From Spirochaetia bacterium (lineage in GTDB: Bacteria > Spirochaetota > Spirochaetia > DSM-2461): 64,000 nucleotides of DNA. The notes under the pieces were generated by a model, which saw only the letters and a list, made by a program, of their open reading frames with translations, was not told the origin of the DNA and made no database searches. Position numbers and translations under genes: made by a program. Location of the stretch: NCBI GenBank assembly GCA_963666985.2, contig CAXXIA010000001.1, forward strand, positions 416,001 through 480,000, read 5' to 3'. Positions within the stretch are counted from its first letter, which is position 1; every line of letters starts with the position of its first letter. Below are positions 16,151 through 26,478 of the stretch, one piece after another.

Positions 16151-17782
16151 CTATTCTTGCCGTTCCAAAGCGGCAATTTCCCCGGCCAAATAAAAAGATC
16201 CGGTTACCAGAATGGGCCGACTCTCGCCGGCCGTCTCCAGAGCCCGCGACCAAGCTTCCGCGGTATCGGGAATAAGATTCACCGCCGCGCCGACACGGCG
16301 GAAGGCTTCGGCGATTCCCGGAGGATCGCTGCGCTTAAAGGTTCCAGGCGTACTGATAATCACGTCGGTAAACGCCGGATGCCTTCCGCCGCAGAGCTCT
16401 TTCGCCATTCCCTCGACATCTTTTCCCAGGGCGCAGCCGAAGATGAGGATGGGGGAGGGCATCGGCCGGGAATCCGCGGCCGTCGAACGGACAACCTCCA
16501 AAAACGCATCACGAAGAGCCGCCGCGGAGTGCGGAGTATGGGCACCGTCGATAATGACCGGCGGCGATGTTCGCAGCCAATGAAATCGGCCCGGAAGACG
16601 GATGTCTTGCAGAACATCGCCCGCTGAGCTGTTATCGGAAAGCGAGGATTCCAGGGAACGGGCCGCCAGGAGCGCCAGGGCGGCGTTTTCCGCCTGAATC
16701 CGCCCGCCCATCCGCAGCCGAATAATCTCCTCTTTCCCGTCCTTCCAGAAAAGTTTCCAGGTAAAGAAGTGCTGTTTGACATCGGCCTTCCATACGGGCG
16801 GCGCGGAGGGTGCCGAGGAGAGTGCGGCGTCGGATATGGCGGCGGGAGCGGCCGGATTTTCAACCGGTGTTGATAACGCGGCCGCTCCCGCGGAGGGCGG
16901 ATTCTCCGCTGTATCCCGTATTGAAAGACTTCCCGAAGGCGGATCGGCATGGACCGCGGAAATCGACATGAGGGCCGAGTCGATTCGTGTTAAGGGCACG
17001 CCCATTTTCCGGGCGCTTCTGCGAAATACGCGCATTGCCGCGGGATTTTGCCGCGCCGACCAAGCCCGCGTTCCGGCTTTGAGAATCCCGGCTTTCTCTT
17101 GGGCAATCTGAGAAAGGGTTCGTCCCAAAATCTCCGTGTGTTCTTTCTCAATCGGCGTGAAGAAGACGGCCTCGGGACGCAGAATGATATTGGTGGCATC
17201 CAGCCGTCCGCCGAGTCCCGTTTCCAGAACGACCGTGTCGCAGCCGCATTCGTTAAAAAGGAGGAAGGCGAAAAGTGTCAGAAGCTCGAAAGTCGTGGCG
17301 CCGCCTTCACCGGCCAAATTCGATTCAACTTCCGGCAGCTTCTTCAGAAGCGTACGGCCGACACTTAAGGCCGCTTCTTCAGGGAATGCTTCTCCTTCAA
17401 TGCGGAAGCGCTCCCTGTAATCGACCAGATGCGGCGATCCGTAAACACCGACACGTCTGCCTGCGGCATGCAGCAGCGCCGCCATATAAGAGGCAACCGA
17501 GCCCTTGCCCTTGGAACCGGCGATATGAACCGTCCTGCAGCGCTCTTGGGGATCGCCGAAGGCCCCGCAGAGCACGCGCATCCTATCAAGCCTGTAGACA
17601 CGGTTCGGATTCCCCGGAGGCAAGCCCTTTTCAAGGTTCGTACGGGCCTCGAAAGCGGCGAAAACTTCATCCAGATCGGTCGGCAGGGCCTGCCTTTCCG
17701 ATGATTTCGATAATGAATCTTCATCGCGAACCACAGGGAGACTTCGGACCGGCTTCGGCCCTTCGAATGAATTCTTCTTCAC
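16151..17782 (-). CDS. folC: Folylpolyglutamate synthase/dihydrofolate synthase
   Basis: Motifs HIAGSKGKGS, SPHL, ETGLGGRLDATN, DGAHT and TGSFYLAG. Confidence 0.93.
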   Translation of the reverse strand: MKKNSFEGPKPVRSLPVVRDEDSLSKSSERQALPTDLDEVFAAFEARTNLEKGLPPGNPNRVYRLDRMRVLCGAFGDPQERCRTVHIAGSKGKGSVASYMAALLHAAGRRVGVYGSPHLVDYRERFRIEGEAFPEEAALSVGRTLLKKLPEVESNLAGEGGATTFELLTLFAFLLFNECGCDTVVLETGLGGRLDATNIILRPEAVFFTPIEKEHTEILGRTLSQIAQEKAGILKAGTRAWSARQNPAAMRVFRRSARKMGVPLTRIDSALMSISAVHADPPSGSLSIRDTAENPPSAGAAALSTPVENPAAPAAISDAALSSAPSAPPVWKADVKQHFFTWKLFWKDGKEEIIRLRMGGRIQAENAALALLAARSLESSLSDNSSAGDVLQDIRLPGRFHWLRTSPPVIIDGAHTPHSAAALRDAFLEVVRSTAADSRPMPSPILIFGCALGKDVEGMAKELCGGRHPAFTDVIISTPGTFKRSDPPGIAEAFRRVGAAVNLIPDTAEAWSRALETAGESRPILVTGSFYLAGEIAALERQE

Positions 17783-19071
17783 CGATCGATAAGGGCGCGC
17801 TTATGCGCCGGAAATTCCTCGTATTCCGCAAGAACGGCCGCATGCGGCCTTAAATCGTCCAGTCCTTCTTTCGTCAGGTAGACCACGCCGGTTTTTTTCT
17901 TAAAATCCGCCACCGATACGCCGGACCAAGTTCGGGCGTTCCCGCCGGTCGGCAGCACGGCATTGGCGCCCACCGAATAATTCGCCGCGGAGAACGGGAC
18001 ATATTCGCCGAGAAGAATTTCTCCGGCGTTTCTGATGCGTCCTAAAACGGCGAACGGATCTTCGGTGCGGATTTGGAGATGTTCGGTGGCGAAACGGTTC
18101 ACCAATTCAATTCCTTCGTCCAAATCGTTTACCAAGAGAATCCCGCCGTACCCGGAGAAAACATCCGATACAAATGTCAGGCGAGGTTCGGGAAGTGATT
18201 TCGCCATCTCCATGAGATGCCTGCCCACTTCTACGGCCAAATCCTTCGAAGGAGTTATCAGCAAGGCAGCCGAATCGGATCCGTGTTCGGCTTCCACCAG
18301 AAGATCCTGCGCGACAAGCCGCGGATTCGGCGTGGAATCCGCCAAAATTATGGATTCCGAAGGTCCCGCCGGCAGACCGCAGTCCAGAACATCGGATAAA
18401 AGCCTTTTCGCCGCGGCGATGTACTTGCTTCCCGGGCCCATGCATTTGTCCACTTTTTGAACAGATTCGGTGCCGTAGGCAAGAGCCGCCCAGGCTTGGG
18501 CCCCTCCGACGGCATAAACTTCTTCGATGCCGCAAAGTTTCGCCACGTAGAGGCATGCCGCATCAACCCGGCCTTCATTATCGGGAGGGCTGGCAAAGGC
18601 GATGCGAGGCACTCCGGCGATGGCGGCGGGAACGGCCATCATATAGAGCATGGAAGGAAAACTCCCGCGGGCTCTCGGAACGTAAAAGGCCGCCGAATCA
18701 ATGGGACGGGTCCGCTCACCGGCTAAGATTCCCTCTCTGATTTCCTTCCACTGTAATCCGTCGGGTGCTTGGTCGGCATGGTAGCGCCGAACATTTTCAA
18801 CCGAGTATTCCAGGGCGGATTTGATTTCATCGGAGAGTGAGGCCTCGGCGTCGGCAAAATGAGATTTCGGCACCCGGATGGAAGCATCCGGCGGAGCATT
18901 GTCGAATCGATGATTATATTCTTTAAGCGCTTCATCGCCTTTTGTTCTTACCGCCTCGATTATTTCAGCCACGATCGGCGTTGTTGCGGCGATGTCCGTT
19001 TCCGAACGGGCAAAGAGTTTTTTTCGGGCATCCTCATCCAGTTCGGACCAGGTGCGGATATTAACGGTCAT
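17779..19071 (-). CDS. hisD: Histidinol dehydrogenase
   Basis: Motifs VGGAQA, GPG, PAGPSE, EAEH, EHLQI and VLPTGG. Confidence 0.93.
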   Translation of the reverse strand: MTVNIRTWSELDEDARKKLFARSETDIAATTPIVAEIIEAVRTKGDEALKEYNHRFDNAPPDASIRVPKSHFADAEASLSDEIKSALEYSVENVRRYHADQAPDGLQWKEIREGILAGERTRPIDSAAFYVPRARGSFPSMLYMMAVPAAIAGVPRIAFASPPDNEGRVDAACLYVAKLCGIEEVYAVGGAQAWAALAYGTESVQKVDKCMGPGSKYIAAAKRLLSDVLDCGLPAGPSESIILADSTPNPRLVAQDLLVEAEHGSDSAALLITPSKDLAVEVGRHLMEMAKSLPEPRLTFVSDVFSGYGGILLVNDLDEGIELVNRFATEHLQIRTEDPFAVLGRIRNAGEILLGEYVPFSAANYSVGANAVLPTGGNARTWSGVSVADFKKKTGVVYLTKEGLDDLRPHAAVLAEYEEFPAHKRALIDR

Positions 19072-19655: not shown

Positions 19656-20090
19656 ATGAAGGCGAATGCAGACTTCCCTACGATTAATGCGAAAAATCCC
19701 GAAGGAATTGATCCTTCAGGGAATCCCTATCGAGTCCTGCTTGTTGATGATTCGATGTTTGTTCGAAAACAATTGAACCAGATTTTGACATCGGAAGGTT
19801 TTGATGTCGTTGGACAGGCCGAGGATGGTTTACAGGGTCTTGAGCTTTACAAAGAGCTTCATCCAAATGTCGACTTGGTGACTATGGATATTACCATGCC
19901 GAACATGGACGGCCTTACGTGTCTGGAAAAAATTCTTGATTTCGACGGTAAAGCCAAGGTCATTATGATCAGTGCGTTGGGAAAAGAAGACCTTGTAAAG
20001 AAGTCGTTGATAACCGGTGCGAAGAATTATATCGTCAAACCGCTGGATCGAAAGAAAGTTCTGGAACGTATTTCTTCGGTGCTCAAGTAA
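19656..20090 (+). CDS. cheY: CheY-like response regulator
   Basis: Motifs LVDD, MDITMPNMDG, MISA and YIVKP. It is a single receiver domain. Confidence 0.8.
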   Translation: MKANADFPTINAKNPEGIDPSGNPYRVLLVDDSMFVRKQLNQILTSEGFDVVGQAEDGLQGLELYKELHPNVDLVTMDITMPNMDGLTCLEKILDFDGKAKVIMISALGKEDLVKKSLITGAKNYIVKPLDRKKVLERISSVLK

Positions 20091-20156: not shown

Positions 20157-20891
20157 TTATCGAACGTTTATAATCAGATTCGATTCCAGTTCTTCGGCCC
20201 ATTGTTTAAGGGTTATCTCGTTGGGAGCTTGGATATCGTTCCAAGCCGGATCGAGGGTGTTTCCGGGAACATACGGCTGCCAAATCCATTGGGGAACACC
20301 GTTTAAGAAGGGGCTCATTTGCTGAAGGATTTCTCTGTCAACCAGCGGGGGAACCACGGTTGTACGGACTTCGTAATTCAGTCCCGAATCCGCGAGCAGT
20401 TTGAGAGTTCTGCTTAAAAGTACTTCGGCGCTTTTTTCTTCGGTTCCCTTCCAGCCAAGTTCGCCGTAGCGTTCGGGAAGAGTTTTTAAATCCATGGCGA
20501 TGTAATCAATCATTCCCGATGCAATCATTTCCTCCAGGCGGTCGGGAAGCAGGCCCGCCGTATCCAGTTTTACCGCAAGTCCTTTTTCTTTGACGATTTT
20601 GATGAGTTTCGGCAGCTGAGGATTTAAGAGCGCTTCTCCGCCGGAAAAAGCCACACCGCCTAAAACCGACGATCTTTTGTCTATAAAGGTTCGAAACATC
20701 CGCGCATCGGCATTGAATGTTTCTTCCCCCGCATCGCTGTTTCCCGGATAGCGGACAGGATCGACGAATTCAGGATTGTGGCAGTAAGGACAGCGGAGGT
20801 TGCAACCCGGAAGGAAAACGGCCGCCGCCACTTTGCCCGGAAAGTCGAGCAAAGTGGTTTTTACCAGAGCGAATCGATGTGTTCCGGTCAA
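20157..20891 (-). CDS. nrdG: Anaerobic RNR activating radical-SAM protein
   Basis: Motifs LLDFPG, GCNLRCPYCHN, SGGE, KLDT, AMDLK and EVRTT. Confidence 0.93.
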   Translation of the reverse strand: MTGTHRFALVKTTLLDFPGKVAAAVFLPGCNLRCPYCHNPEFVDPVRYPGNSDAGEETFNADARMFRTFIDKRSSVLGGVAFSGGEALLNPQLPKLIKIVKEKGLAVKLDTAGLLPDRLEEMIASGMIDYIAMDLKTLPERYGELGWKGTEEKSAEVLLSRTLKLLADSGLNYEVRTTVVPPLVDREILQQMSPFLNGVPQWIWQPYVPGNTLDPAWNDIQAPNEITLKQWAEELESNLIINVR

Positions 20892-20921
20892 GAGAGAATT
20901 CCTTGATGGCGGATCAGTCGA

Positions 20922-21467
20922 TTAGGCGCCGGCAACGGCCGCGAGTCCGGCTTGTGCTTCAAGCGCGGCGACGGTGCTCCCTCGGCCTGTTTCATTCCCC
21001 AAGGAATCGAGGAAAACAACCGTCGGAGCCGCCGTTATGTCGTACAGGCCCGCTTCGTGCATTCCGGATTCACGGTCGACATCAATCCGTCTTCCTTCCA
21101 GACCGGATCGTTCAAGCCAATCCGCCACGGGCGGGCAGTTGGGGCATGTTTTTCTAAAAAAATAGAGGTATTCGGCGGGATTTGCTTCTCCGGCGAAAAG
21201 AAGTTCCTTTTGAGGTTCCGTCTCTTGAACCACGGTGAGGGAAATCGATGAGTCTGTTTTGCTTTTCAGGGACCCGGCGGTTACGGACGGCTTATAATTT
21301 GTGTAATTAACACGCTGTCCGAATTCTTCTTTTTTGCCTTTGTTCCAATTACGTACCGAGCGATAATAACCGACGATACGGGCATAAACCTCGGTTTCCA
21401 TGCCCTGCACCTGTTTCCGCTGATCTTTGAGCTCTTCCAGGCGCGTGTTGATTTGGTCCACTGTCAT
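20922..21467 (-). CDS. Detached class III RNR glycyl-radical subunit fused to a glutaredoxin/thioredoxin-like domain
   Basis: EVYARIVGYYRSVRNWNKGKKEEF is the NrdD C-terminal Gly loop. It also has TCPNC and AAPT. There is a GGAGG SD and an ATGA overlap with nrdD. Confidence 0.9.
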   Translation of the reverse strand: MTVDQINTRLEELKDQRKQVQGMETEVYARIVGYYRSVRNWNKGKKEEFGQRVNYTNYKPSVTAGSLKSKTDSSISLTVVQETEPQKELLFAGEANPAEYLYFFRKTCPNCPPVADWLERSGLEGRRIDVDRESGMHEAGLYDITAAPTVVFLDSLGNETGRGSTVAALEAQAGLAAVAGA

Positions 21468-23590
21468 ACTGTTTCTTCCTCCAGCAGCTGTTTTTTTGAT
21501 TCGAGTTCGGCGATTTCTTGATCAATTGCCGCCTCTTTTTCCGCCCGGCATTTCGGGCATTCAAAATGTTCACCCTCGAGATAGCCATGAACGGGGCAAA
21601 CTGAAAAAACCGGGGAAACCGTGAAACAGGGAAGACGGTATCCGGTCGCGATGGTTTTCACCAATTCGCGACAGGCCTCCCAGTCCTTGATCCGTTCTCC
21701 CAAGAAACAATGAAACATCGTTCCACCGGTATATTTCGTCTGCAGTTCGTCCTGCAGGTCGAGAGCATCGAAAACATCGTGTGTGAAGTCCACGGGCAAT
21801 TGCGTGGAGTTCGTGTAATACGGTTCATCCGAACCGGCCGTGATTATCTCCGGGTAGTGCTTTTTGTCGTGCTTGGCCAGACGGTAGCTGGTGCTTTCCG
21901 CGGGGGAAGCCTCCAGATTGAACAGATCGCCCGTTTCTTCCTGATAATCGGCCATTCGTCCGCGCATGAAGTCCAGAATCTCCAAGGCGAAGTTTCGTGC
22001 CGCCGGATCGGTGATGGGTTTACCCATGAAATTCAGCAGACATTCATTCATTCCCACCAAGCCGATTGTGTTGAAATGGTTGTTCAGATGTTTGAGATAA
22101 CGGCGTGTATAGGGGAAGAGGCCGGCATCAAAAAGGTGGTTTATTACTTTTCGTTTCGCGATAAGCGATTCGGCGGCAAGATCCATCATGCGGCCGAGGC
22201 GGCCGTAGAAATCGGCTTCCGAATTCGACAGATAGCCGATTCTGGGCATGTTGATGGTTACGACGCCGAGAGAGCCCGTGAATTCGTCCGATCCGAAAAG
22301 ACCCCCGCCGCGTTTGCGCAGTTCCCGTTTATCCAGCCTGAGCCTGCAGCACATGGACCTGACATCTTCGGGATTCAAATCCGAATTGATGAAATTCTGG
22401 AAATTGGGTGTACCGAATTTCGAAGTCATTTCAAAAAGGAGTTTGGCGTTCGGTGAATTCCAGTCGAAATCCGGGGTGATGTTGTAGGTCGGTATCGGAT
22501 AGGCGAATCCGCGGCCGTTGGCATCTCCTTCGAGCATCAGTTCGATAAATGCCTTGTTGATCATGTCCATTTCAACGCGGCAGTCCCCGTAGGTGAAATC
22601 CAGTTCCTCTCCGCCCACGACGGCCGGCCGGTCTTTCAGATCCGAGGGGCAGACCCAATCCAGCGTTATGTTGGTAAAGGGGGCCTGACTTCCCCAGCGC
22701 GAGGGAGTATTAACGCCGAAAATGAAACTCTGGAGAGACTGCTTAACCTGTTTATAGGAGAGTTTATCCGTCCGTACAAACGGGGCCAGGTAGGTATCGA
22801 AACTGGACAAAGCCTGAGCTCCCGCCCATTCGTTCTGCATGATGCCCAGGAAGTTCACCATCTGGAACATCAGCGTGGACATATGCGATGCCGGTTTTGA
22901 GGCGATTTTATCACGAACTCCGCCGAGTCCTTCGGCAATTAATTGTCTCAAGGACCAGCCGGCACAGTAGCCGGAAAACATGGACAGATCATGAATGTGC
23001 ATGGCTCCCGAGCGATGGGCTTCGGCGACCGCTTCCGAGTAGACGTTTTTCAGCCAGTAATTGGCCGTAATGGTTCCCGAATTGTGGAGGATGAGCCCAC
23101 CGAGGGAGAAATTGACGTTGGCGTTCTCATTAACGCGCCAATCGGATCGGGAAAGGTATCCGTCCATCGTATCGTTGATATCGAGCATCAGGGCTTTTGC
23201 TTCCCGAATACCTTCGCGGCGGGCCCTATAGAGGATGTAGGATTTTACAAGAGCGGCGTCTCCGTTCGTTATAAGAGCCTTCTCCACGAGATCTTGGATT
23301 TCTTCCACGGCCGGAGCGGAATTGGGATGACGGCTGTCCATGAATTCGCGCAGAGAATCTTCAACCGCATCGGTAATTTTCGATGCCGTTTCTTCCGCGT
23401 CGCTTTGGGAGTGGCCATTGGCCATGACTGCTTTGGCCACGGCGCTTTCAATCCTCGAACGATCGTAATGAACCACACGGCCGTCTCTTTTTACGATTCT
23501 TTTCACGGGGAATTCGGACATAGGCATAACGCTTTCGTGTGAAATCCCAACAAGAGCCTTCCAATCCGTCGTATTGTTTTGCTCGCTCAT
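21464..23590 (-). CDS. nrdD: Class III ribonucleoside-triphosphate reductase catalytic subunit, lacking the Gly-radical tail
   Basis: ATP cone (VKRDG), ENAN, HIHDL, YCAGW, SMCCRL, NLEASPAE and the Zn site CPVH...CPKC. Confidence 0.95.
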   Translation of the reverse strand: MSEQNNTTDWKALVGISHESVMPMSEFPVKRIVKRDGRVVHYDRSRIESAVAKAVMANGHSQSDAEETASKITDAVEDSLREFMDSRHPNSAPAVEEIQDLVEKALITNGDAALVKSYILYRARREGIREAKALMLDINDTMDGYLSRSDWRVNENANVNFSLGGLILHNSGTITANYWLKNVYSEAVAEAHRSGAMHIHDLSMFSGYCAGWSLRQLIAEGLGGVRDKIASKPASHMSTLMFQMVNFLGIMQNEWAGAQALSSFDTYLAPFVRTDKLSYKQVKQSLQSFIFGVNTPSRWGSQAPFTNITLDWVCPSDLKDRPAVVGGEELDFTYGDCRVEMDMINKAFIELMLEGDANGRGFAYPIPTYNITPDFDWNSPNAKLLFEMTSKFGTPNFQNFINSDLNPEDVRSMCCRLRLDKRELRKRGGGLFGSDEFTGSLGVVTINMPRIGYLSNSEADFYGRLGRMMDLAAESLIAKRKVINHLFDAGLFPYTRRYLKHLNNHFNTIGLVGMNECLLNFMGKPITDPAARNFALEILDFMRGRMADYQEETGDLFNLEASPAESTSYRLAKHDKKHYPEIITAGSDEPYYTNSTQLPVDFTHDVFDALDLQDELQTKYTGGTMFHCFLGERIKDWEACRELVKTIATGYRLPCFTVSPVFSVCPVHGYLEGEHFECPKCRAEKEAAIDQEIAELESKKQLLEEETV

Positions 23591-23603
23591 CTTCCAGGTT
23601 CTC

Positions 23604-24107
23604 CTAAAACAATTCGCCGGCCGATTCGGTTTGCGTGGCGGTTGTATTCGTTTCCGATCCTAATTCCTCGATGACTCGGATGAATTCATCGACATCCTCA
23701 AATTGACGATATACGGAGGCGAAACGGACATAGGCCACTTTGTCCAGGGAAAAGAGTTTCTCCAGGACCAAGTCTCCTATGGTTTCGCTCCGGATTTCAT
23801 GCGTGGAGCGGCTCATCATGGCGGCTTCATCTTCTATCGAATGAAGAACATCTTCTATGTCCGAGTGAATTACCGGCCGTTTCTCCAAAGCCCTCATGAC
23901 GCCGTGCTCGATTTTTTTAACATCAAAGGACTCCCGACGCCCGGATTTTTTAATAACCATAATGGGGACTTCTTCGATATGTTCATACGAAGTAAAGCGA
24001 TAACCGCATCCGATGCATTCTCTTCGTCTTCGTATGGTTGTTCCGCTCTGGTTTTGGCGCGATTCAATAACTTTATCTTCTGCCAGGCCGCACAACGGAC
24101 ATTTCAC
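23604..24107 (-). CDS. nrdR: Transcriptional repressor NrdR
   Basis: CPLC, KVIESR, IRRRRECIGCGYRFTSYE and VAYVRFASVYRQF. It has a GTG start. Confidence 0.96.
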   Translation of the reverse strand: MKCPLCGLAEDKVIESRQNQSGTTIRRRRECIGCGYRFTSYEHIEEVPIMVIKKSGRRESFDVKKIEHGVMRALEKRPVIHSDIEDVLHSIEDEAAMMSRSTHEIRSETIGDLVLEKLFSLDKVAYVRFASVYRQFEDVDEFIRVIEELGSETNTTATQTESAGELF

Positions 24108-24130
24108 AATAAATCGAGCCCTCCGGAAAA

Positions 24131-24187
24131 ACTCCATATGTAGGTGTTTATCAGCTAATGAAAATGTTAGCACGCCATATATGGAAT
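24131..24187. promoter_or_regulatory. Tandem NrdR boxes
   Basis: ACTCCATATGTAGGTG (24131) and ACGCCATATATGGAAT (24172) are 41 bp apart, resemble acaCwAtATaTwGtgt, and lie upstream of nrdR-nrdD. Confidence 0.7.
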
Positions 24188-24324
24188 CTTCAAGCTGAAA
24201 CGAAAGATTTCATAAAAAAAATCACGGCTCTTCTTGTATGGTGAACATGCGAATACTGAAAGACGGTATTATAAGGTCTTTTTTAAGCCGACTAGGCACG
24301 GAATTCGCATGGAAAACAAGCGGT

Positions 24325-26478
24325 TTAGAGACGGATTTCGGCGCGGGCGCGCCTGATGATCGTATCTTCCAGGTCCGTTCGATTCACCGACGGCGGATCA
24401 ATCGGATTTTTCCAGGAGGCAACGGCGCGTAAAACAAGTTTCGCATCTCCGTTAACCGTGAATCTCAAGTCAAGCGGGAAGGGAGGATTCGCCCCGAGAT
24501 AAATGATTGCATTTGTTCCGCTCGGAGACATTCCGAAAGGATAATTCGCCTCATGGAGCGTGAATGGAGATAAGGAATGGAGCGAGATTTCAAGGCTTGA
24601 AGGAGCATCATCTCCCCGGATCGTGACGGCTACGGTTCGGCGTCCGAGAAAAGTTCGTGATGTTTCCTCCATCTTCAACGGTATAATGCTCGGTTGTGTC
24701 TGAATCTCAGCCTTCCGGCCGATGTCCTCCAGGGCATAATCGATTCCGTCCAGAGAGAGAACGGCATCACCCACAGGTCCGGGACTGCTGAGTTCCAGCT
24801 TTCTGCTGCCTTTAACAAGATCGATGTCGTCGATAAGAATTACGGGCTGCGGCGAGCCGGGACCGTACGGATGAAGTCCGAGTATCCAGATCAGCGTGAT
24901 AATCGCCATCAGGCTTAGGGTTAGGGTTGCGGCGGGCGTGACGATAATCAATCTGATTCGCTGATAGTGAATGCGCCAATAGCTGAGGCTTACGATACCG
25001 AATATCAGCGGGAGCAGAGTCAGAGTCAAAATGATATTGGCGGAGATGCGGTTCAGCAGCATGTATTGCAGAATGGGATAATAGGGCTCTTTGACAACGA
25101 CAACGGCCCCAATGAGATAAGGCAGCTGCGCGAGGATCAGAAGCGGTATTTTTCTCTGAACATTCTTCGAGATGGTGAAAAGAAGAAGGATGATAATAAC
25201 TAAAAGGGCATAGAAAGCCATCGTAACATCAAGCGCCATGAGTACAAGTAAAAAGAGGATTGAGGAAAAAATGGCTCCGTAGGAATAAAAATGAGGTGAG
25301 CGCGGCAGCGGAAGACCTTGTGTTATCAGAATGAAATTCAGTGTAAGGGCACCGGTAACGGCAAGTTTGAAGAAAATGAAAATTCCCGGTGCGTGCTTCC
25401 AAAGATCCGGGAAGTTGGCAAGGAGGATGGATTCTTCAACGATAAGCGTTGACAGGAAGAGAAAAAGAAATACCAGGATGAAAAGGAGAGGCCAAGTCCA
25501 CCAGAATCGGGCGAACCGTTTGAGATTCAGTCTGATTTTTCTCAATTGAAACAGCGGTGTTATTAAGAGAATAACGGATATGGCCAGGAACACACCGATA
25601 TAGGGCAGTTCCGGGATGAGTTTTGGAGCGGAACTTGAAAGCGGACGAAGGAATATATAGGTACGCTCATCTTCGTCGGGGAGAGCGTCGAAATCCCGGT
25701 CGAGGGTTTTCATCGCCGTAAGGAATCGTGTGATAAGCCGATCTTCCTTCCCCTGTTCGGCTTTCCCTTCTCCGGCCAGTCTGATGGATGGAATGCCCGC
25801 TTCAAGCCAGGAGGCCAACGCACCGACATCTCCCTGCAGTCCCAATCGCGCCGCGTGAATATCGGTCCCTCTCATCCGATAAGGGATGTATTCCGATGAA
25901 ATAACTTGCGCCGTTTTCTCCACAAGCCAATACGGCGAGACCGTTCCGTTCCCGCCGATTTGGAACCGCCACAGATCGGGAACAACCTCGCTGTCCAAAT
26001 AGATAACGAAAAGATCTTCCCGACCGCCGAACATTTCCGCGGCGAGTCTGCTTCCATACGGATGGAATTCGGTTTCTCCCCGTTCGGCGCCAAGGAACGC
26101 CAGAATGATTGTGTGTTTCGGGGGATTGATTTTTAAATCTGAGGCAAGCTCCAAAAGCAGGGCCGTCGAGTAGGCTCCATCGTCGATAGGCGCGGCAAAA
26201 ATAATTCGTTCGGAACGGCTTCCCTGTATCGTCGCAATCAGATTCGAGGAGAACGAATGCCCCCTGTCCCCCGAATCAAGCGGCAGCCGCTCATACGGGA
26301 TATTATTTTCACTCAGAAATCCGGCGATGTAATTAATGGCCTTGAGTTCTCCCTCGGTTCCGTCGGAGCGATCCTGAAAGCCGGAAAGTACGGAACTATG
26401 GGCTTCAACGTCCCTCGGTGAAGCCGTAAGGGGAAAAATCATGAGGAAAAAGAAAAATGCCGTTATCCAACGCCGCAT
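24325..26478 (-). CDS. Membrane protein with an N-terminal M28 peptidase-like domain
   Basis: Signal peptide, SNLIATIQG, ALLLELA and AFLGAE, then multiple TM segments and a C-terminal soluble domain. The start is uncertain. Confidence 0.7.
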   Translation of the reverse strand: MRRWITAFFFFLMIFPLTASPRDVEAHSSVLSGFQDRSDGTEGELKAINYIAGFLSENNIPYERLPLDSGDRGHSFSSNLIATIQGSRSERIIFAAPIDDGAYSTALLLELASDLKINPPKHTIILAFLGAERGETEFHPYGSRLAAEMFGGREDLFVIYLDSEVVPDLWRFQIGGNGTVSPYWLVEKTAQVISSEYIPYRMRGTDIHAARLGLQGDVGALASWLEAGIPSIRLAGEGKAEQGKEDRLITRFLTAMKTLDRDFDALPDEDERTYIFLRPLSSSAPKLIPELPYIGVFLAISVILLITPLFQLRKIRLNLKRFARFWWTWPLLFILVFLFLFLSTLIVEESILLANFPDLWKHAPGIFIFFKLAVTGALTLNFILITQGLPLPRSPHFYSYGAIFSSILFLLVLMALDVTMAFYALLVIIILLLFTISKNVQRKIPLLILAQLPYLIGAVVVVKEPYYPILQYMLLNRISANIILTLTLLPLIFGIVSLSYWRIHYQRIRLIIVTPAATLTLSLMAIITLIWILGLHPYGPGSPQPVILIDDIDLVKGSRKLELSSPGPVGDAVLSLDGIDYALEDIGRKAEIQTQPSIIPLKMEETSRTFLGRRTVAVTIRGDDAPSSLEISLHSLSPFTLHEANYPFGMSPSGTNAIIYLGANPPFPLDLRFTVNGDAKLVLRAVASWKNPIDPPSVNRTDLEDTIIRRARAEIRL

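Follow-up and report, generated by a model that had tools for sequence, protein, structure and literature searches.

The 64,000-nucleotide stretch of DNA analysed here (the window; positions 416,001 to 480,000 of contig CAXXIA010000001.1, assembly GCA_963666985.2, from a Spirochaetia bacterium) carries a class III ribonucleotide reductase (RNR), NrdD, as two overlapping genes: a large catalytic chain that ends after its zinc site, and a small chain that bears the radical glycine loop. The locus thus raises the question whether a class III RNR can consist of two polypeptides, how these would be joined, and why such a split is kept. Taken together, sequence comparison and structure prediction make it probable that this is a working two-polypeptide enzyme with a small, helix-docked radical chain.

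A class III ribonucleotide reductase encoded by two genes

The two genes and their junction are as follows.

21464..23590, minus strand: large class III RNR chain, 708 amino acids (aa); NF006126, 1070.9 bits (cut-off 548); PF13597 positions 1-532 of 562
20922..21467, minus strand: small chain, 181 aa: docking helix, strand plus Gly loop plus tail, linker, thioredoxin-fold domain
21464..21482, minus strand: GGAGG site (21482-21478) and ATGA stop/start overlap (21467-21464), from sequence

The large chain belongs to the PRK08270 family (TIGR02487, 469 bits against a cut-off of 326.35) and comprises an ATP cone, the catalytic barrel, a Zn site and a docking helix, without the Gly loop. The remainder of the NRDD profile PF13597 (positions 532-562 of 562) matches residues 24-55 of the small chain, and in a profile search of the whole genome these two chains were the only NRDD matches. 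An RxxGY loop is therefore present in the two-gene pair and absent from the catalytic chain. No class I or II RNR was found in this genome, which is 93% complete.

The break in the gene falls after the last Zn cysteine and before the strand leading into the Gly loop. An initial annotation, made from the sequence alone, had described a natural split with the glycyl-radical domain on a separate subunit; its coordinates, the two heptad-like helices it quoted, the ATGA overlap, the GGAGG site and the RIVGYY loop on the next open reading frame were all recovered. The domain description holds for the strand, the Gly loop and the tail. Since the Zn ligands remain on the large chain, only these elements have moved, and the glycyl-radical domain of P. 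copri NrdD, as defined in PMC11226230, is wider than that. The Shine-Dalgarno site attributed to the small gene is likewise present, 10 nt before its ATG, but is weak evidence by itself because it overlaps Leu-Glu-Glu codons of the large gene. In relatives whose two genes are separated by a gap, a GGAG-type site is retained within the non-coding DNA.

The split is genuine and conserved

Contigs from a second study, ~99% identical to the window with 41 substitutions, span the junction without an indel. This comparison covers two of four sequencing runs; the other two come from the first study, from which this DNA may itself derive. Among 40 relatives searched, of which 30 matched, 23 loci include the end of a closely related large gene, and all 23 are split at the same site; the other loci fetched stop at a contig end, were left unparsed or hold a distant one-chain form. 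The small chain has 1609 relatives of 99-317 aa (expectation value, E, ≤0.001). Among 80 genome loci, whose record titles are nearly all those of spirochaetes, 73 have split, adjacent genes, one is fused and six have no adjacent large gene, three of the latter lying at contig ends. In a class-wide sample, NrdD is present in 89 of 121 genomes; 62 of these have a match ending at profile position 494-539 and 27 have one-chain forms only, as counted by hand from the table, with junctions read directly for a subset.

Across 116 distinct gene pairs, the window included and starts called automatically, the three frame offsets occur 52, 35 and 29 times and the large gene stops at TAA (79), TGA (26) or TAG (11). 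The gap between the halves is zero or negative in 15 pairs, 1-49 nt in 49, 50-99 nt in 19 and at least 100 nt in 33, reaching 346 nt. Moreover, the halves lie ~602, 548, 527 and 95 kb apart in genomes G055, G119, G080 and G102 (one contig, 99% complete), respectively. In the group with far-apart halves the small chain lacks the redoxin domain, and three of these four genomes were tested for a class I or II RNR and also have one. In G055 and G277, which were checked for neighbours, the small gene sits before nrdG.

An assembly error, a pseudogene, or a programmed frameshift or readthrough that yields one chain after all would find some encouragement in the 35 pairs that are in frame and in one database protein, P0123, that reads across the junction. 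Yet all 12 in-frame junctions that were fetched contain a stop codon, of three kinds, and the junction of P0123 has no first helix and appears to be out of frame. With all three frame offsets in use and halves 95-602 kb apart, a frameshift does not explain the split; the active-site residues are invariant, and the independent strain has no indel. We consider a one-chain product extremely improbable and have rejected frameshift, readthrough and pseudogene, in agreement with the initial annotation. Separately, at locus L096 the large nrdD lies in two frames near residue 267, reflecting a frameshift or an assembly error.

A probable coiled coil between the new ends

Both new termini are amphipathic helices.

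21479..21547, minus strand: C-terminal docking helix of the large chain, residues 682-704; core 689, 693, 696, 700, 703; in the predicted interface
21408..21461, minus strand: N-terminal docking helix of the small chain, residues 3-20; core 3, 6, 10, 13, 17, 20; model helix 3-19, predicted local distance difference test (pLDDT) ~90

The coiled-coil dock that had been proposed for these ends draws support from the heptads, from charge swaps, from helix-free one-chain relatives and from a structural model. With L and S denoting positions of the large and small chain, I, L, V, M or F occupies L689, L693 and L696 in 97% of the 116 pairs, and S3, S6, S10, S17 and S20 in 91-100%. The covarying pairs ranked first, second and fourth are L692-S9, L697-S14 and L685-S16. 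Where both residues are charged, the charges are opposite in 89 of 92, 94 of 96 and 52 of 54 cases, respectively, with swaps in both directions; on independent pairs the same positions move together 3.4, 5.0 and 2.7 times and never oppositely. The off-register control L692/S16 shows no covariation. From heptad geometry, these three would be the flanking pairs expected around an antiparallel core. A parallel register also scored high by raw position difference and was discarded, as the top pairs are g-g' and e-e', fitting the antiparallel arrangement.

One-chain relatives lack both helices, indicating that the helices come and go with the split. In 65 of 66 longer hits (318-2000 aa), many of which also carry the redoxin domain, the last CxxC is joined to the strand directly or with 5-6 extra residues; the other hit, P0123, looks like a read-through artefact. 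No one-chain intermediate with both helices was found among these hits or the 12 in-frame junctions, the search for long forms being weak by design.

Finally, a complex of large-chain residues 136-708 with small-chain residues 1-181 was predicted alongside three controls. It scored 0.88, the best control 0.00; the score mark is reached by 116 of 157 solved complexes and by 2 of 215 mismatches. The runs share at least 80% of contacts, with a partner pLDDT of at least 68, and the listed interface contacts include both helices in the heptad pattern, an element absent from solved NrdDs. As the halves of split genes tend to pass through their likeness to one-chain structures, the score shows fit rather than binding.

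Active-site residues and a tethered redoxin domain

The further features of the two chains are listed below.

23213..23500, minus strand: ATP cone of the large chain, residues 31-126 (PF03477, E 3.6e-20)
22343..22357, minus strand: finger-loop motif SMCCR (M413, C414, C415), invariant in 37 aligned large chains
21548..21598, minus strand: Zn site C665, H668, C678, C681 on the large chain; invariant alignment columns
21363..21380, minus strand: radical loop R30-I-V-G33-Y-Y35 of the small chain (PF13597 532-562; R30-R36 invariant in 72 sequences)
21180..21290, minus strand: variable linker, ~residues 60-96, predicted disordered; wide length variation, pLDDT ~50
20958..21179, minus strand: thioredoxin/glutaredoxin-fold domain, ~residues 97-170, with CPNC at 108-111 and a conserved P148

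In the 37 aligned large chains, C209, C414 and C415, that is the beta-A cysteine and those of the finger loop, are invariant, and we counted this invariance of the catalytic residues as a sign of a working enzyme. With C209 and E560, SMCCR gives the combination of double cysteine, Met and Glu. In the alignment, E560 falls opposite T. maritima E495, reportedly identified as the catalytic Glu by Wei et al. in 2014, and the third cysteine and active-site Glu of the NrdD2 type are present. On the small chain, Gly33 (21371-21369) is by homology the predicted radical site. In other classes of the phylum the loop reads RIVGYH, with helices and redoxin domain unchanged (loci L045-L052, L055-L057).

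Half of the small protein is a redoxin domain that the initial annotation did not mention. It shows a thioredoxin fold with a CxxC at the first helix and a proline at the cis-Pro position; C108, C111 and P148 are invariant in 72 aligned sequences. The domain is modelled with pLDDT >90, its Foldseek matches are thioredoxins (E ~1e-4), and it matches phrog_22 (E 2e-5); Pfam Glutaredoxin gives only E 0.007, below its cut-off. The small chain has no match to PF01228, the glycyl-radical domain of the pyruvate formate-lyase (PFL) type.

These features suggest the following mechanism. An antiparallel coiled coil of the two new-end helices would replace the covalent link, the small-chain strand would complete the Zn-ribbon sheet, and its loop would enter the barrel. 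NrdG would place the radical on Gly33, from where a thiyl radical would form on the large chain. Less firmly, the tethered CPNC domain may re-reduce the disulfide of the active site, the task that thioredoxin performs in double-cysteine NrdDs. On this model the small chain would be a non-covalent radical-plus-reductant cartridge that could be made and activated apart from the 80 kDa body and, in principle, exchanged.

Several observations weigh against this mechanism. The three charge pairs were chosen post hoc, and when independent pairs are counted none reaches significance (median p 0.06-0.25). Resemblance to solved one-chain NrdDs would by itself account for part of the complex score; the confident contacts listed do not include C414 or C415, and the redoxin domain lies outside the predicted interface. 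Many split systems lack the redoxin domain altogether, and M413 leaves formate possible as reductant, according to section 2.5 of PMC9669993.

Genomic context

Genes for the activase and for a regulator flank the pair.

20157..20891, minus strand: nrdG, radical S-adenosylmethionine (SAM) activase (TIGR02495 NrdG2, 165.5 bits; cut-off 131.15)
23604..24107, minus strand: nrdR, repressor of RNR genes with Zn ribbon and ATP cone (TIGR00244, 164 bits; cut-off 124.65)

The GTG start of nrdR at 24107 is deduced from the sequence, the TIGR00244 scan having begun at 24089. No NrdR box was found in the window at 2 mismatches or in 20800-24400 at 3. In the second strain, 30 nt have been inserted just downstream of nrdG (window 20123). 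A gene for a CheY-like receiver (19656-20090) converges on nrdG, and a HisD-like gene (17779-19071) has neighbours that are not his genes.

Evolutionary history and other split types

The split systems with a coiled coil (type A) do not form one clade (approximately unbiased test, p-AU 4e-69; 34-row tree), and one-chain forms nest inside them. As the helices share register and core, we infer one origin followed by repeated re-fusion with loss of both helices. In a 271-row FastTree of the barrel the fused or split state changes 31 times, at least 16 of these changes being forced by starred branches; the tree includes every third type-A locus of L116-L195, rows less than 75% filled were dropped, two type-A rows are mislabelled D, and some representatives are possibly cut by contig ends.

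Other docks occur as well, both in other spirochaete classes and in Proteobacteria. In those other classes of spirochaetes the large chain terminates in CPxxH, a short helix and a strand, followed by a peptide of 49-66 aa. At L082 and in G068 the fourth Zn ligand is missing from the large chain, and a Cys of the peptide stands at the corresponding spacing; for this combination (L082, L107, L064, L072) a Zn bridge between the chains is possible, judging from ligand spacing. Several lone viral peptides also start with a Cys at the fourth-ligand spacing. A second NrdD subfamily (loop RITGYL) is split too, with a different N-terminal extension of the peptide (L303, L304).

Breadth outside the phylum rests on plasmid records and family representatives. 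Ten loci on plasmids or chromids were read: eight are split (Sulfuricystis, Bradyrhizobium, Cereibacter, Azospira, Paracoccus, Ralstonia and two Cupriavidus) and two fused; on the Azospira plasmid (L279) the split nrdD operon lies between nrdA and nrdB. The 150 family representatives comprise 71 that lack a loop beyond the Zn site, 52 fused forms and 27 left unparsed, Caldimicrobium being one named source of a representative without the loop. Many representatives in P0307-P0455 are 900-1900 aa long and match in several separate stretches, a pattern consistent with inteins at a small number of common sites.

C. necator H16 offers a particular case. On pHG1 (L285:771-3144) its large chain has 676 aa (76.2 kDa), residue 650 being the Gly in the Zn motif CPTHG; the RVMGYH loop is encoded 142 nt downstream by a 66-aa gene, E6A55_RS33455. 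Gly650 was reportedly proposed as the radical site by Siedow et al. in 1999; if so, sequence comparison suggests that the assignment needs re-examination. As to the fitness of the H16 peptide gene in transposon sequencing, no nrd term appears in PMC11540253 or in one of its supplements, and the larger data tables may bear on it.

Separate promoters, extra copies and viral peptides

An NrdR-box-like palindrome is present in 25 of the 33 intergenic gaps of at least 100 nt, against 0.18 expected from shuffles. In 19 of the 25 a -35-like hexamer stands just upstream, for example TTGACA in L037, L042, L138, L155 and L160. The three unlinked small genes examined also have an NrdR-box-like, promoter-like site. 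These sites in the gaps suggest that transcription of the small gene and nrdG can be independent of the large gene, the loci concerned being mostly Treponema kin and not independent cases.

Additional or tandem copies of the peptide gene exist in some genomes, several of them within prophage-like regions; at L098:3677-4081 the peptide gene is a tandem duplicate between nrdD and nrdG. Of 80 viral loci (L196-L275), 78 could be classified: 67 are lone Gly-loop peptides whose flanks show no nrdD body, a class toward which the viral query is biased, 5 are split and 6 fused. At least 3.5 kb of upstream sequence is available for 50 of the 67 lone peptides, and most viral peptides have no nrdG nearby. 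Radical SAM genes other than NrdG2 lie beside lone peptides at L064:3727-4698 and L072:2617-3540 and are possibly a different activase. At L090:3525-3689 a lone peptide gene stands within a cobalamin-related run (TonB receptor, DUF4430, CobS). Regarding viral and metagenomic databases, the ESM Atlas yielded clusters of 68-70 aa (score 0.76), a lead only; PHROGs has no family for the three peptides searched, and annotated phages gave two weak records.

Why is the split kept?

The initial annotation had suggested an oxygen spare part: O2 cleaves the small chain at Gly33, the cut chain leaves and a fresh one restores the enzyme. This is compatible with the two-chain mechanism and concerns only why the split is kept. 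Promoter-like sites that allow separate transcription, unlinked small genes, extra copies and lone peptides in viral loci, all from other genomes, lend indirect support to exchangeability, and facultative anaerobes, among them Cupriavidus, Bradyrhizobium and Paracoccus, also have split genes. At the present locus, on the other hand, the gene is single-copy, begins in an ATGA overlap that leaves no room for a promoter of its own, and has no NrdR box that we could find. Moreover, the docking helix would stay on a cleaved fragment 1-32, which might block the site; all five PFL-like enzymes of this genome are one-chain, and a search for a short GrcA-like match found none. The 27 class members with one-chain NrdD only, the nesting of one-chain forms among split ones and their repeated re-fusion also speak against a need for replacement, and the kinship of the promoter-bearing loci reduces their weight. 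The spare-part role is therefore plausible, with chances that we put somewhat below even.

A detachable loop might instead serve radical loading or its regulation, with NrdG modifying the peptide off the barrel before it is inserted. Where the small gene is separated it stays with nrdG (L100 and L060, NrdG2 above cut-off) and has its own promoter-like site, and the radical domain of the one-chain P. copri NrdD is mobile (PMC11226230). A hydrophobic coiled coil of three heptads rather suggests a standing complex, however; the same activase family serves one-chain relatives, and the viral peptides mostly travel without nrdG, so that we regard this as unlikely. Slightly better placed, though still rather unlikely, is neutral fission, by which the gene breaks easily at this surface turn and docks compensate without any advantage. 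The many changes of state on the barrel tree, the scatter of type A and the variety of docking solutions are what it predicts. Yet every cut falls at one and the same turn, immediately ahead of the radical strand; selection would explain repeated origin at a single site just as well as fragility, and lone phage copies and separate promoters are hard to account for in this way.

Extending the two-chain mechanism to the family as a whole, PRK08270 class III RNRs may largely run on an exchangeable radical cartridge of many origins, docked by a coiled coil, a His-capped strand, a peptide-supplied Zn ligand or a short helix, regulated separately with the activase in some hosts and carried on its own by phages to supply or repair the host enzyme. 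We hold this extension tentatively, as more doubtful than not.

Relation to known systems

One-chain NrdD with NrdG (T4 1H78, T. maritima 4COI/4U3E, P. copri 8P23, entry 9D3X) shares the barrel, ATP cone, finger-loop cysteines, Zn site, RxxGY loop, and adjacent activase and nrdR. In contrast to it, the Gly loop here is on a second gene product, two helices are added and a redoxin is tethered. The finger-loop double cysteine and active-site Glu are those of the thioredoxin-using NrdD2 of N. bacilliformis and of T. maritima (PMC4493059, PMC9669993), whereas the Met of SMCCR and the redoxin on the small chain are not; because of this Met, formate may still be the reductant.

YfiD/GrcA (and T4 Y06I), the spare part of PFL, is likewise a small autonomous radical-glycine protein with phage-borne copies. 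GrcA, however, rescues a cleaved one-chain enzyme that has its own loop, while the large chain here never has one, making the small chain obligate; the fold families also differ (PF01228 for GrcA, PF13597 here). Split class II NrdJa/NrdJb (PMC9669993) also has an RNR C-terminal part as a second chain, but is B12-dependent, its NrdJb carrying IscU-like and Zn-finger domains and no storage radical. In Facklamia ignava Grx-NrdB, a redoxin fused to a radical-bearing subunit works as reductant according to PMC6187632, which also lists one grx-nrdD fusion; unlike here, that enzyme is class I and aerobic, with an N-terminal glutaredoxin on a ferritin-like subunit.

Spare parts are known only for formate lyases and are described as undetermined for other glycyl radical enzymes in a 2026 review (PMC13450708). 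No description of a split NrdD was found in the literature searched, which lay outside subscription papers, RNRdb and most supplements, so that prior notice is possible.

Implications

A widespread two-chain variant of class III RNR, with a coiled-coil dock for which there is good evidence and a tethered redoxin, is real on comparative sequence evidence; replacement after oxygen damage is plausible. In reviews the glycyl radical is regarded as belonging to the NrdD chain. With a conserved two-chain NrdD the spare-part question becomes testable, and the split is present in a genetically tractable host, C. necator H16. If the exchangeable-cartridge extension is true, it would be the first such case outside PFL, and the radical glycine of H16 would lie on the overlooked 66-aa gene instead of at Gly650. 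Annotation is affected as well: in RefSeq the peptide carries the label nrdD or hypothetical, and for CH34 the genome paper gives nrdDG as Rmet_5137 and Rmet_5139, skipping the number between (PMC2864759). A protein of 6-20 kDa would be a minimal NrdG substrate with which radical loading could be studied apart from the barrel. Above all, the small chain is a testable candidate for the replaceable radical part of an oxygen-sensitive enzyme that makes DNA building blocks.

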